A DNA stretch of 35,263 nt, taken from Mariprofundaceae bacterium. GTDB taxonomy: Bacteria > Pseudomonadota > Zetaproteobacteria > Mariprofundales > Mariprofundaceae. Of this stretch, positions 18,871 to 25,943 are shown piece by piece. Below the pieces are notes generated by a model. It made no database searches. It had not been told where the DNA came from and saw nothing but the letters and a program-made list of their open reading frames with translations. Numbering within the stretch: position 1 is the stretch's first letter; each line of letters begins with the position of its first letter. The position numbers and the translations under genes are program-made. The stretch is from NCBI GenBank assembly GCA_027035825.1, contig JALVTX010000144.1, positions 1-35,263 on the forward strand. Direction: 5' to 3'.

Positions 18871-19212
18871 ATGACAAAGCAGACGGCTGACAGCCAGACG
18901 GAGGCACAAGGTCAAACCGAGCCCAAGGTGATTTGGGATGACTCGGAGATGGTGAGCAGCTATGCCAATGTGGTGAACGCGACCAGCACGCGCGAGGAGT
19001 TCATGGTGTTTTTCGGCGTCAACCAGACTTGGAATCCAGCGCAGGCGGAGGTCGCGATCAAGCTGACCAATCGCATCGTGATGAGCCCCTTTGCCGCCAA
19101 GCGACTGAGCTTGATTCTGGCCAACGTTTTGCGCGAATACGAGGCCAATTTCGGCACGATCCCGCTGGATTTGCAGACCGTCCAGGAAACGGGGCGCGAG
19201 CAGCCGAACTGA
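18871..19212 (+). CDS. Small cytoplasmic protein, DUF3467-like (113 aa)
   Basis: ATG at 18871 is preceded by AAGGAG (18858-18863) with a 7-nt spacer, the best SD in the block. No signal peptide. The core YANVVNATSTREEFMVFFGVNQ...IKLTNRIVMSPFAAKRLSLILANVLREYEANFG resembles the DUF3467 pattern (Y.N...I.....EF.LDFG...V.RIVM.P..AK.L...L...I..YE..FG) as I remember it. Confidence 0.6.
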   Translation: MTKQTADSQTEAQGQTEPKVIWDDSEMVSSYANVVNATSTREEFMVFFGVNQTWNPAQAEVAIKLTNRIVMSPFAAKRLSLILANVLREYEANFGTIPLDLQTVQETGREQPN

Positions 19213-19235
19213 CGCGACCGGCGGGGTGACGCTGT

Positions 19236-23225: not shown

Positions 23226-25176
23226 GGATGGCTCCCTGCTTGCGCGTGGTTATGGCGAACGGCCCGAGCGGGAAGCGGAGATTGACCTGGTGGCGATGCA
23301 CCTTCGACGGTTGACATGGATGCCGCGCCCCATGATGCGACGCAGGATGCTTGAATTCCCCGAACGGGTCAGCGCGGCCGCGAAAAAGGAAGGAGTCCAA
23401 GCGCTTTCTTCCAGGGAGCTGGCGGAAAGGTTGAAGAGCTTTCGGCTCAAATTGCGGCGACGAGGAGTCCGCGAGGAGCTTTTGCCAACGGGATTTGCCC
23501 TGATTCAGGAAGTCTCCGCGCGGGTGCTGGGAATGAGGCACCGGGATGTCCAACTGATGGCTGGCTGGGCGCTTGTTCATGGCGCGCTCGCCGAGGTGGA
23601 GACAGGCGAGGGCAAAACGCTGGCGGCGACGCTGGCGGCGGGCGTGGCCGCCTGGGCGGGATTGCGCGTGCATGTCATCACCTCGAACGACTATCTGGCC
23701 GAGCGTGATGCAACTCATTTGGCTCCATTGTATGATGCCATCGGTCTTAAGGCCGGATGCGTGCTGCACGGGATTCCGCGCGCCCGCCGCCGCCAGGCTT
23801 ACGCGTGCGAAATAACGTACGCGTCGGCGAAGGAGCTTGCGTTTGATTATCTCCGTGACAGGCTGGCCTTGGGCGGCAATGGGGCGCGCCGAAGGCATGC
23901 CCGGCGCTGCGGTCAGGGAACCGTCATGCGGGGGCTGGTGTATGGCATCGTGGATGAGGCGGACGATATTTTGATCGACGAGGCGCGGACGCCGCTCATC
24001 ATTTCGGAGGGAGGGGCGTCGGAAGACGAGGCGGATATTCGCGGAGCGCTTGAATTTGCGCGCCGGCTTGAATCGAGACGCCATTTTCGCATGGATGCGG
24101 ATCGCCACGTTGAGTTAACCTCCGAGGGAGAGCGGATGCTGGATCAATGGACGCGGACAACCTACCGCGGAAGCAAGCCTCATCGGTTCATGGAGTTGGC
24201 GGTTCAGGCGGTGGCGGCGCTTCATGGATTTAAGCGGGACAAGGATTATATCGTCCGCGATGGCTCGATTGTCATCGTGGATGAGCATTCGGGTCGCGGC
24301 ATGGCGGATCGTTCCTGGAGCCGGGGGCTCCACCAGCTCATCGAGGCCAAGGAAGGCTGTGAACTGAGCGAGGCCATGCGTCCTCGGGTTCAGAGCACAT
24401 ACCAGGAGTTTTTCCGTCGTTACCTCAATCTGTGCGGCATGACGGGCACGGCTTGGGAAGTGCGTCGCGAGCTGTGGATGTTCTATCGCCTCCCCGTTCT
24501 TCGCGTGCCGCCGCATTGTCCCAGCCGATGCGTCGGCATGCCGCCGAGGGTGTTCATGGACATGAAGGGCAAGGAGCAGTCGGTGGTCATGCGGGTGGAG
24601 GAAGTGCAGCGTCTGGGGCGGCCGGTTCTGGTGGGCACGGCTTCGGTGAAGTCCTCGGAGCGGCTTGCGGCGGCCATGGCGCAATGCGGAATCAAATGCA
24701 GGGTATTGAATGCGCGCCAGGATGCCGACGAGGCCGAGGTGGTGAAGTGCGCGGGGAGGCATGATGCCGTGACGGTGGCGACGAGCATGGCGGGGAGAGG
24801 GACGGACATTCCGCTTGATGACGTCGCGCGCGAGAATGGCGGGCTGCATGTGATTCTGACGGAGATGCATGATTCATCCCGGGTGGATCGGCAACTGGCG
24901 GGCCGGGCGGCGCGACATGGGGATCCTGGCAGTTATGAAATGATGCTTTCGCTTGAAGACGATATTTGGATGAATGCGTCCGGCACCAGTGTTCTAAGGC
25001 CTGTAATCGTATTCCTCATGCGAGGCATTCCGTGGGGGGGGCGAATCGTCTTGCGTCTCATGAGATATTTGCAGAAAAGGATTGAAAAGCGGCATTTTCG
25101 CATTCGATGCAGACTTGTCAGGCATCAGAAGACATTGGGCGATTTGCTTTCATTTTCGTGGGAGGAAGCCAGATGA
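23218..25176 (+). CDS. SecA-like DEAD-motor ATPase, C-terminally truncated relative to housekeeping SecA (652 aa)
   Basis: Motifs align with E. coli SecA as I recall it: VLGMRHRDVQL, Walker A EVETGEGKTLAATL, VITSNDYLAERD, ITYASAKELAFDYLRD, Walker B/DEAD IVDEADDILIDEARTPLIISEG, a PPXD-like insert with DKDYIVRDGSIVIVDEHSGRGMADRSWSRGLHQLIEAKEG, then CGMTGTA, PVLVGTASV, ATSMAGRGTDI and GGLHVILTEMHDSSRVDRQLAGRAARHGDPGSYEMMLSLEDD. The ORF ends ~75 aa later. Its start overlaps the M50 gene by 8 nt (an internal start is possible) and its stop overlaps the next ATG as ATGA. Confidence 0.85.
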   Translation: MSRDGSLLARGYGERPEREAEIDLVAMHLRRLTWMPRPMMRRRMLEFPERVSAAAKKEGVQALSSRELAERLKSFRLKLRRRGVREELLPTGFALIQEVSARVLGMRHRDVQLMAGWALVHGALAEVETGEGKTLAATLAAGVAAWAGLRVHVITSNDYLAERDATHLAPLYDAIGLKAGCVLHGIPRARRRQAYACEITYASAKELAFDYLRDRLALGGNGARRRHARRCGQGTVMRGLVYGIVDEADDILIDEARTPLIISEGGASEDEADIRGALEFARRLESRRHFRMDADRHVELTSEGERMLDQWTRTTYRGSKPHRFMELAVQAVAALHGFKRDKDYIVRDGSIVIVDEHSGRGMADRSWSRGLHQLIEAKEGCELSEAMRPRVQSTYQEFFRRYLNLCGMTGTAWEVRRELWMFYRLPVLRVPPHCPSRCVGMPPRVFMDMKGKEQSVVMRVEEVQRLGRPVLVGTASVKSSERLAAAMAQCGIKCRVLNARQDADEAEVVKCAGRHDAVTVATSMAGRGTDIPLDDVARENGGLHVILTEMHDSSRVDRQLAGRAARHGDPGSYEMMLSLEDDIWMNASGTSVLRPVIVFLMRGIPWGGRIVLRLMRYLQKRIEKRHFRIRCRLVRHQKTLGDLLSFSWEEAR

Positions 25177-25943
25177 AGGGGTGGCGACGCGGATGCGCGC
25201 TGTTGGGCATTCTTCTCGCGCAAGGATCTACGGCGATAGGGAAGGAGTATGACTGTGTCATAGCCCCTCACCGAATCGTCAAGGTCAGCGCGGCGGCACC
25301 AGGGGTGATTCGCAAGGTGAACGTGGAACGCGGCGATCGTGTCCGCAAGGGGAGCGTGCTGTTTCAACTCGACGCAAGGGTGCGCGAGGCGGAAACGGCG
25401 CTGGCCAAGGTGAAAATGGAGTACGCCCAACGCGAGGTCAGACGCAATCTGGGAATGCGGAAGGAAGACCTCATTTCCGAAAGCAAGATGGATGAATTGA
25501 GGAATCGCCTGGCCCTGGCCAAGGCCGAACTCCGGGTGGCCCAGGCCAGGCTCGCGCAATACACCGTTCGCAGTCCCATCGACGGGGTGGTGCTCGAGCA
25601 ACATCATTTTGCAGGCGAGTTCGTCCGCGAGGACTATGTGCTCAAATTGGCGCAAACCAATCCCTTGAACGTGGAAACCGTTTTGCCGGCTGCGGTCGCG
25701 CTGGGATTGCGTCCCGGGGAGCGAGTCCCGGTATTGCTGGGGCCTCGCGGGGAGGAACGCGCCGGAGAGGTGCGCATCGTTGAGCCTGTCATTGATTCCG
25801 CCAGCGGCACGGTTGGAGTCCAGCTTCGTCTGGAGAACGCGCAAGGCGCGGTGCGAGCAGGCGCGGCGTGTCGCATTCGACTTGATGACGGCGGAAAACA
25901 TGAGAGCGGTTTGGTTCAAGATGGGGCGGGCGTCAGCCAATGA
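25173..25943 (+). CDS. Small HlyD/membrane-fusion-family periplasmic adaptor (256 aa)
   Basis: I take the start as ATG 25173 (MKGWRRGCALLGILLAQGSTAIG..., signal or anchor). It is preceded by GGAGGAAG (25161-25168) and overlaps the SecA-like stop (ATGA). MFP hairpin: VSAAAPGVIRKVNVERGDRVRKGSVLFQLD...coiled coil...TVRSPIDGVVLE, then a beta-barrel-like region (AGEVRIVEPVIDSASGTVGVQLRLEN). The track ORF begins earlier (25107), inside the SecA-like gene. Confidence 0.8.
   Translation: MKGWRRGCALLGILLAQGSTAIGKEYDCVIAPHRIVKVSAAAPGVIRKVNVERGDRVRKGSVLFQLDARVREAETALAKVKMEYAQREVRRNLGMRKEDLISESKMDELRNRLALAKAELRVAQARLAQYTVRSPIDGVVLEQHHFAGEFVREDYVLKLAQTNPLNVETVLPAAVALGLRPGERVPVLLGPRGEERAGEVRIVEPVIDSASGTVGVQLRLENAQGAVRAGAACRIRLDDGGKHESGLVQDGAGVSQ

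Follow-up and report, generated by a model that had tools for sequence, protein, structure and literature searches.

A 23.4-kb gene island in contig JALVTX010000144.1 of a Mariprofundaceae bacterium (Zetaproteobacteria; assembly GCA_027035825.1) probably encodes a self-contained, TolC-dependent, envelope-spanning machine for the export and processing of the adjacent giant protein, which carries LEPR-XLL, DUF4347 and RTX elements. The whole analysed stretch, 35,263 nt, is called the window below. More tentatively, the island may represent a new class of Gram-negative secretion system: TolC-dependent, centred on a fusion of an M50 protease with a periplasmic adaptor (M50-adaptor), using the LEPR-XLL leader as secretion or processing signal, powered in one large branch by a wing-less SecA paralogue instead of an ABC transporter, and having as cargo many of the largest proteins of bacteria (4,000 to >12,000 residues). 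Convergent genomic evidence indicates that one constant group of envelope proteins accompanies giants of one class, marked by a distinctive N-terminal motif, and only these. This evidence comprises the list of parts and their predicted topology, the conserved gene order, the linkage to giant genes, the lack of a pump, the gain or loss of the island as one unit, and the conservation of protease and ATPase residues. A preliminary description of the window had proposed an uncharacterized export or processing machine spanning the envelope without any ATP-binding cassette (ABC), resistance-nodulation-division (RND) or major facilitator superfamily (MFS) transporter; profile hidden Markov model (HMM) searches, synteny and co-occurrence support it as a candidate. 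The island and its neighbours are laid out as follows, in window positions.

2505-25943, no strand: the island, an indel unit reaching from ffh to the rpsP promoter, delimited by its flanks in metagenome contig L091
2514-4283, + strand: hybrid sensor histidine kinase/receiver with a NahK/ErcS-like C-terminal half (Pfam HisKA, HATPase_c, Response_reg)
4285-4890, - strand: NarL/LuxR-type response regulator, recognized from its translation (Response_reg 67 bits, GerE 46 bits)
4999-6351, + strand: TolC-family outer-membrane channel (Pfam OEP; TIGR01844)
6348-18830, + strand: giant of 4,160 residues, the presumed cargo (NF012209, DUF4347, RTX)
6429-6497, + strand: LEPR-XLL motif LVFEPLEERLLLSADFAPPPPDA, candidate leader or recognition signal (NF012209)
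18871-19212, + strand: DUF3467 small cytoplasmic protein (Pfam, 73 bits)
19236-21059, + strand: GAF-adaptor (GAF, HlyD_D23, HlyD_3, one transmembrane helix)
21069-23225, + strand: PqqD-like/M50/periplasmic adaptor fusion, the M50-adaptor (NCBIfam, conserved residues, AlphaFold2/Foldseek)
23218-25176, + strand: truncated SecA-like ATPase of 652 residues (SecA_DEAD, PP_bind, P-loop_SecA)
25173-25943, + strand (open frame from 25107): small periplasmic adaptor (TIGR01730; start at the ATGA overlap)
157-867, + strand: FKBP isomerase gene
1135-2502, + strand: ffh
3' of the cassette, + strand: rpsP (from 26014), then trmD, dnaK, dnaJ and dapB

The limits of the island are set by contig L091, which is 98% identical in nucleotide sequence to the window on both flanks and in which rpsP lies 75 nt after ffh. 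The BLAST blocks correspond to window positions 1132-2504 and 25944-33556, with the junction at 7634-7636 of L091. Since ffh abuts rpsP between these flanks, window positions 2505-25943 form one clean 23.4-kb indel unit, which holds the kinase, the regulator, tolC, the giant gene, the five-gene cassette and nothing else. The set has been gained or lost as one unit, insertion and deletion being indistinguishable here. Its GC fraction is 0.55-0.64, versus 0.65-0.71 outside. No integrase or transposase was found inside the island, and no flanking repeats or mobility genes were seen at its ends. The genes are closely packed: the 3' end of tolC overlaps the start of the giant gene by 4 nt, 40 nt separate the end of the giant gene from the first cassette gene, and the five cassette genes follow at intervals of 23 and 9 nt, then overlapping by 8 nt (23218-23225) and at an ATGA (25173-25176). 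A GGAGG stands seven nt 5' of the ATG of the small adaptor. The strand, coordinates and spacing of the five genes in the preliminary description were exact on recheck, and its 40-nt, hairpin-free interval after the giant gene was likewise confirmed; no terminator-like site was found between genes of the island operon. No RNA element was detected within the operon by Rfam, and a promoter-like site occurs at 25953-25981, 5' of rpsP.

The giant begins with a basic N-terminal region, followed by LVFEPLEERLLLSAD (LEPR-XLL), DUF4347, RTX blocks and a basic C-terminal tail. The LEPR-XLL (LEPR-8K) model NF012209 matches residues 28-50 with 24.9 bits, above its cut-off of 17; DUF4347 covers residues 94-262 (178 bits), and HemolysinCabind is also matched. 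The RTX blocks lie at residues ~2706-2863 and ~3798-3922, one of them ~250 residues from the C-terminus. No Sec-type hydrophobic segment was found in the giant, its N-terminus included. The final ~50 residues consist of a short hydrophobic patch ending in G-W and a strongly basic, Arg/Lys-rich tail. A patch of the type AxAGxSGW, with a Lys/Arg-rich tail of 15-60 residues, ends many cassette-linked giants (window 18680-18830), including those of loci L006, L012, L013, L019, L024, L031, L043, L044 and L072. By a regular expression defined after the fact, this motif is present in 12 of 31 C-terminal segments versus 24 of 773 internal ones. Alphaproteobacterial giants end in 'W..N.GLLKRLGSLFKK' instead, and the giant of the Escherichia coli sister system described below has neither type of tail. 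The C-terminal motif may be a second recognition or cleavage signal.

Conservation of the cassette was assessed by a scan of one genome per GTDB species, which placed the M50-adaptor in at least 590 species representatives. A census of loci took the best 80 of these matches, with open reading frames (ORFs) called anew and compared by phmmer; its denominators are the loci with room for the gene concerned. Represented among the best 80 are Alpha-, Beta- and Gammaproteobacteria, Desulfobacterota, Omnitrophota and Nitrospiraceae, together with a single metagenome-assembled genome (MAG) of the Flavobacteriales. The core order GAF-adaptor, M50-adaptor, SecA-like ATPase and small adaptor is kept in Bradyrhizobium and in one MAG each of Deltaproteobacteria and Gammaproteobacteria, and this four-gene order extends across Alpha-, Beta- and Gammaproteobacteria, Desulfobacterota and Nitrospiraceae. 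The synteny in unrelated lineages that the preliminary description had asked of its candidate is therefore found both in these three look-ups and in the 80-locus census. The GAF-adaptor gene lies upstream of the M50 gene at 69 of 72 loci, and the SecA-like gene is present at no fewer than 64 of 68, two of the four misses being artefacts of ORF boundaries. The small adaptor stands 3' of the SecA-like gene at 45 of 57 loci, some of the remainder having it in another place, while DUF3467 directly precedes the GAF-adaptor gene at 21 of 66, and also in L090 and L092. TolC occurs within 10 kb at four of the 80 loci; clusters that contain it are those of the window, of a Methylosinus plasmid and of L008, L021, L047 and L069. 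Cultured strains of Methylosinus, Rhizobium, Mesorhizobium and the Roseobacter group also carry the cassette on plasmids.

Variations on this theme were noted. SapC (PF07277) is encoded at 18 of 80 loci in variable position, among them L020, L022, L025, L053, L063, L079 and L093; in several Alphaproteobacteria it sits between the M50-adaptor and SecA-like genes, and the window lacks it. In L007 and L014, from a Deltaproteobacteria MAG and an Omnitrophota MAG, the GAF-adaptor and M50-adaptor genes have no adjoining SecA-like gene; in L014 they are followed by a LEPR-type giant. Similar large proteins adjoin the cassette or the giant in L004 (4198-5835, annotated GGDEF+EAL), L023, L024 and L076, and the GGDEF+EAL neighbour hints at second-messenger control in some lineages.

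Linkage to giants was counted at loci with >3 kb on both sides, a giant being an ORF within 5 kb with a length of 1,500 residues or more (800 or more when it runs off the fetched DNA). Such an ORF is found at 30 of 39 loci, and its commonest position is directly upstream on the same strand (29/56), as in the window. A basic region and a motif of the type [FY]ExLExRxL[LF]SA mark all 12 neighbouring giants with a readable N-terminus, which come from nine metagenome or species loci and three annotated plasmids. The plasmid of Methylosinus sp. C49 encodes a giant of 8,847 residues together with DUF3467, GAF-adaptor, 'PqqD family protein', SecA-like protein, adaptor and TolC. That of Pseudosulfitobacter sp. 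DSM 107133 encodes a giant of 12,918 residues, named 'LEPR-XLL domain-containing protein' by the Prokaryotic Genome Annotation Pipeline (PGAP), with GAF-adaptor, 'site-2 protease family protein', SapC, SecA-like protein and adaptor. The best database match to the N-terminus of the window giant lies just after a cassette, and one DUF3467 homologue is located between a giant of 6,436 residues and a cassette. The expected co-occurrence of the cassette with genes for DUF4347/LEPR-XLL giants, and with tolC wherever this is in view, is thereby borne out.

The most distinctive product of the cassette is the M50-adaptor, in which a candidate PqqD-like domain precedes an HExxH protease of the M50/site-2 protease (S2P) type with 6-7 transmembrane helices and a periplasmic adaptor with an alpha-hairpin at residues 498-551. 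In the window protein HELGH occupies residues 212-216 and NLNPLLRFD residues 306-314; H212, E213, H216, N306, N308, P309, L310 and D314, i.e. the HExxH and NxNPLxxxD motifs, are invariant in 43 diverse homologues. The C-terminal 270 residues were modelled by AlphaFold2 as a periplasmic adaptor fold with a mean predicted local distance difference test (pLDDT) score of 88.5, and Foldseek matched them to MacA, MexA, AcrA, ZneB and EmrA at E ~1e-10. At 50% identity the family falls into 3,534 clusters with E≤1e-30; most of the top 150 have ~715 residues (range 635-741). Among the species representatives listed, the closest relative of the window protein is only ~40% identical, which suggests that the lineage of the window is poorly sampled. 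RefSeq/PGAP names for the family vary between 'PqqD family protein', 'site-2 protease family protein' and 'HlyD family' adaptor.

The kinship of the protease prompts another interpretation, in which the genes form a maturation and export module for small peptides such as bacteriocins and other ribosomally synthesized and post-translationally modified peptides (RiPPs): the PqqD-like domain would bind the leader of a short precursor, the M50 domain would cut it, the adaptors and TolC would export the product, and linkage to the giant would be incidental. The N-terminal half is indeed homologous to leader peptidases of daptides and epipeptides, with E 6.5e-42 for NF041824 (daptide-type HExxH intramembrane metalloprotease) and 1e-5 for NF058609 (epipeptide side). 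It bears the putative PqqD-like domain, for which one homologue has a weak precomputed match, and homologues are named 'PqqD family peptide modification chaperone' by PGAP; the Bradyrhizobium locus, which lacks a giant, is close to a radical-SAM gene and an ORF of 46 residues. The score against NF041824, however, is 144 bits, far under the equivalog cut-off of 300. Neighbourhood clustering gave no recurrent short precursor or modification-enzyme family, and no RiPP precursor or tailoring gene was found in the island. Giants, on the other hand, adjoin 30 of the 39 loci and share their N-terminal motif wherever it is readable. We regard a peptide module as quite improbable; the independent peptide-processing module envisaged in the preliminary description is disfavoured by this tight linkage.

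The SecA-like protein scores 298 bits for SecA_DEAD, 81 bits for SecA_PP_bind and 155 bits for P-loop_SecA, and aligns to E. coli SecA from residue ~22 to ~650 (E 3e-114). Retained are nucleotide-binding domain 1 (NBD1), the preprotein cross-linking domain (PPXD), NBD2 and the first part of the scaffold helix; the wing domain, two-helix finger and C-tail are missing. All NCBIfam SecA and SecA2 models stay below cut-off, e.g. 528 versus 814. Members of the family have ~650-670 residues; 8,000 of 8,000 candidates scored E≤1e-30, and the 120 listed mostly have 600-680 residues. Across 25 members, no variation is seen in Walker A (GEGKT), the DEAD motif or the arginine-finger motifs. SecA is universal and essential; given this, and the copies of the cassette on plasmids of cultured bacteria, the SecA-like genes must be accessory paralogues. 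At the extreme C-terminus a motif LGDxLAFSGRxE is conserved in the family (window 25132-25173) and may be a docking peptide for a partner. RefSeq/PGAP calls the gene 'prepilin peptidase' in two plasmid records of cultured strains (L092 22222-24138 and L093 23074-25098) and in MAG proteins P0005 and P0024. Annotation of the SecA-like and M50-adaptor genes in RefSeq/PGAP is inconsistent and partly wrong.

Two further adaptors and a small cytoplasmic protein complete the cassette. The GAF-adaptor has a cytoplasmic part of ~340 residues with a GAF domain at 174-303 (46 bits), a transmembrane helix at 342-360 and an HlyD-type periplasmic part (Pfam HlyD_D23 and HlyD_3). The small adaptor has 256 residues when read from the ATGA-overlap start, with a signal-like N-terminal segment, and passes the RND_mfp model TIGR01730 with 118.5 bits (cut-off 94.9). 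The Pfam models HlyD_3/HlyD_D23 are passed by two of the three adaptors, and the T1SS-specific model (type I secretion system, T1SS) TIGR01843 gives 54.7, 24.7 and 44.3 bits for the three, against a cut-off of 208. For the DUF3467 protein, an AlphaFold2 model from a 55-sequence alignment (pLDDT 68) shows three strands and two helices. A SecB-like chaperone was considered for it and rejected: Foldseek gave no significant match in the PDB, the best being PC4/Pur-alpha-like at E ~0.5, SecB was not among the matches, and a sequence search of the PDB returned none. In L089 (10001-12158) a DUF3467 gene stands beside a gene for a 606-residue GAF protein, the rest of the cassette being missing; this pair suggests that DUF3467 works with the cytoplasmic region of the GAF-adaptor. 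Collectively, the profile-HMM searches uphold the products named in the preliminary description (DUF3467, GAF-HlyD, M50-HlyD, SecA-like and small HlyD proteins), with two exceptions: of its two GAF domains only one could be recovered, although matches up to E 5 were considered, and the putative PqqD-like domain had escaped it. No dedicated NCBIfam model (June 2026) exists for any of the four core proteins.

The affinity of the adaptor domains for RND/MacA-type models, against which they score best, could point to an efflux function for small molecules or polymers. Alternatively, the M50 domain could act on a regulator by regulated intramembrane proteolysis, S2P proteases being classically engaged in signalling. 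No small-molecule transporter domain is present, however, and the island encodes neither an anti-sigma nor a sigma factor; giant genes are linked to the cassette, and the preprotein-binding domain of the SecA-like protein points to a polypeptide client. Non-protein efflux or envelope signalling is thus the least probable of the explanations considered.

The outer-membrane component is provided by tolC, correctly placed at 4999 in the preliminary description: its product matches Pfam OEP and passes the type_I_sec_TolC model TIGR01844 (234.6 bits, cut-off 225.15). The 715-nt gap that was thought to precede it is not empty, since the minus-strand response regulator gene at 4285-4890, divergent from tolC, had been overlooked; 'orfX' (4337-4897, +) is an artefact, the real gene being this one on the minus strand. 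With the kinase (2514-4283), the regulator makes up a two-component pair inside the island. The kinase matches NF041832 at E 6e-101, below cut-off, and its N-terminal 220 residues have no domain assignment. No SecY-like gene was found in the island.

No pump of a known type accompanies the adaptors in the window. A motif scan of the window ORFs bears out this central claim of the preliminary description: the sole classical Walker A is that of Ffh, no ABC signature is paired with a P-loop, and two LSGG-like strings are chance matches in the tolC and trmD frames. No ABC, RND or MFS pump was found in the 35-kb window. A single ABC-like ORF occurs in ~80 related neighbourhoods, unrelated and on the opposite strand, and no ABC exporter flanks the clusters of Methylosinus sp. 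C49 or Pseudosulfitobacter sp. DSM 107133.

These results bear on a different role for the cassette, that of a retention-and-release controller resembling LapD/LapG. An unlinked ABC-type T1SS would export the giant, the cassette would hold its N-terminus with adaptors and TolC as anchoring site, and M50 cleavage under GAF control would release it. RTX blocks near the C-terminus, as in T1SS cargo, are consistent with such a scheme, as are the invariant catalytic residues of the protease, the fusion of a cytoplasmic sensor domain to a periplasmic domain, the GGDEF/EAL genes beside some clusters, and the sister clusters treated below, which do without a dedicated ATPase. Against it, no T1SS-type ABC gene was found in the ~80 neighbourhoods, and the island, which moves as a unit, includes a TolC gene and three adaptor genes of its own without any ABC gene. 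A mere release switch would have no use for a SecA motor that keeps its preprotein-binding domain. No LapG-type periplasmic cysteine protease (C93) or LapD GGDEF-EAL receptor domain was detected in any island protein. The leading rival of the export reading, retention and release is a rather unlikely function of the cassette.

Comparison with a sister system separates the core of the export machine from its additions. More distant M50-adaptor homologues (~26% identity) occur in five-gene modules encoding a LEPR-type/DUF4347/cadherin giant, TolC, an adaptor of ~290 residues, an HlyD protein of ~450 residues and an M50-adaptor of ~710 residues. No SecA-like, GAF, DUF3467 or ABC gene, and no other ATPase gene, was found in these modules. 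Such modules are plasmid-borne in E. coli (IncHI1B), Citrobacter, Kosakonia, Azospirillum and other bacteria; L096 and L097 are among the instances. Of 5,426 complete E. coli genomes, 24 carry the E. coli module (L098, NZ_CP060066.1 20836-38214), mostly on plasmids; it adjoins insertion sequences, and its M50 domain passes Pfam PF02163 with 34.7 bits. The common core would therefore be the LEPR-type giant, TolC and a trio of adaptors that includes the M50 fusion, with the SecA-like, GAF and DUF3467 components as additions of the branch to which the window belongs. Of the three models offered in the preliminary description, a T1SS-like conduit with a SecA motor fits best, but as a general statement it is weakened by the SecA-less sister clusters.

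Each step of the mechanism proposed for the export machine is inferred from analogous processes, namely leader recognition in RiPP pathways, proteolysis by S2P enzymes, and the workings of SecA and of tripartite pumps. The PqqD-M50-adaptor fusion would serve as inner-membrane platform, and its adaptor domain, together with the GAF-adaptor and the small adaptor, could build a mixed ring docking TolC via short alpha-hairpins. The basic N-terminal region and LEPR-XLL motif of the giant would act as a leader, bound by the cytoplasmic PqqD-like domain in the way RiPP recognition elements bind their leaders, and the M50 active site would cut this LEPR-XLL leader. The wing-less SecA-like ATPase would presumably be unable to engage SecYEG in the usual way; its preprotein-binding domain may clamp the unfolded chain and feed it into the conduit at the expense of ATP, with calcium-driven folding of RTX repeats outside the cell adding directionality. 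The GAF domain may gate the machine on a small ligand, with DUF3467 as a putative cytoplasmic partner of the GAF-adaptor, and the kinase and regulator of the island would control transcription from the divergent tolC promoter region.

Several points weigh against an export machine of this kind. The main weakness comes from the sister core, which does without a dedicated ATPase; any inner-membrane channel or energy source proposed here is accordingly conjectural, and for the same reason the SecA-like protein cannot be a universal motor. To our knowledge, M50/S2P domains are not known to conduct polypeptides. An ABC exporter elsewhere in the genome is possible, the window spanning 35 kb only. 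Nine of the 39 loci have no giant within 5 kb, e.g. Bradyrhizobium L001, and two of three DUF4347 look-ups lay away from any cassette; the reverse search with the N-terminus gave mostly short gene fragments, and the one DUF4347 gene in three found by a cassette is anecdotal. Two domain assignments in the window fusion fall below threshold: Peptidase_M50 (PF02163) scores 14.6 bits against 27.2, and PqqD (PF05402, residues 35-103, full profile) 19.2 bits against 23.4 (E 0.0016). Finally, the evidence is all genomic, and the direction of transport and the site of cleavage are guesses.

If the export reading holds, its consequences would be broad. In the textbook view, the inner-membrane engine of a TolC tripartite system is an ABC, RND or MFS transporter, a picture that a widespread fourth solution would change. 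The reading would explain the exit route of a large and unstudied class of LEPR-XLL/DUF4347 giants, which have neither a Sec signal nor a nearby ABC exporter, and would provide functions for DUF3467, DUF4347 and the LEPR-XLL motif. In diderm bacteria, the SecA-like protein would be the first paralogue of SecA to act apart from SecYEG, and intramembrane proteolysis would be linked to secretion. With the cassette on plasmids of cultured strains and the ATPase-less module on E. coli plasmids, these proposals are directly testable.

No description of the cassette gene set was found in the searchable full-text literature, in which several reports touch on parts of it. ABC, RND and MFS are the only inner-membrane engines given in a 2021 review of type 1 and tripartite systems, which mentions SecA only with SecYEG/SecDF (PMC8277102). 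Giant proteins of Omnitrophota and Actinobacteria contain built-in SecA_DEAD and preprotein-binding domains without scaffold or wing, for which self-export has been proposed (bioRxiv 10.1101/2023.11.21.568195). A 2026 preprint on Chlorochromatium reports SapC and TolC genes around two giants and a horizontally acquired secA elsewhere, which are left unconnected there (bioRxiv 10.64898/2026.03.19.712371), and the BapP paper deals with an ordinary ABC-type system (PMC12153261).

Among known systems, the island recalls first the T1SSs for giant RTX adhesins (HlyBD-TolC; LapBCE with LapD/LapG), by its operon, its TolC passing the T1SS model, its HlyD-type adaptors and its adjoining RTX giant. It differs from them in having no ABC exporter, LapG or LapD, and in having instead three adaptors, two of which are fused to PqqD-M50 and GAF, a SecA-like ATPase and an N-terminal LEPR-XLL motif. 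SecA2 systems (SecA2/SecY2 for serine-rich adhesins; mycobacterial SecA2) likewise tie a specialized SecA paralogue to very large surface proteins and keep NBD1, PPXD and NBD2. The window protein, in contrast, ends in the scaffold helix, has no SecY2 or Asp genes beside it, is partnered by adaptors and a diderm TolC, and would serve a cargo without Sec signal peptide. Closer to it are the Omnitrophota and Actinobacteria giants, whose SecA-like modules also lack scaffold and wing and are associated with giant proteins; there, however, the module acts in cis, with no HlyD, TolC or M50 partners reported, whereas the window encodes a separate 652-residue protein in a four-gene cassette. With the membrane HExxH/M50 leader peptidases of RiPP pathways (daptide MpaP, YydH/LiaK), the M50-adaptor shares a homologous protease domain, a putative PqqD-like N-terminus and a bind-cut-export logic, but it is fused to a periplasmic adaptor, is encoded beside a SecA-like ATPase and lies near giants rather than short precursors. 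Tripartite pumps (MacAB-TolC, AcrAB-TolC and EmrAB-TolC) have in common with the island the lipoyl, beta-barrel and alpha-hairpin fold of the adaptors and the outer TolC channel; its inner-membrane partner, unlike theirs, is not of ABC, RND or MFS type, and its presumed cargo is a protein of megadalton scale. The architecture is that of the TolC-dependent tripartite type with a new inner-membrane module.

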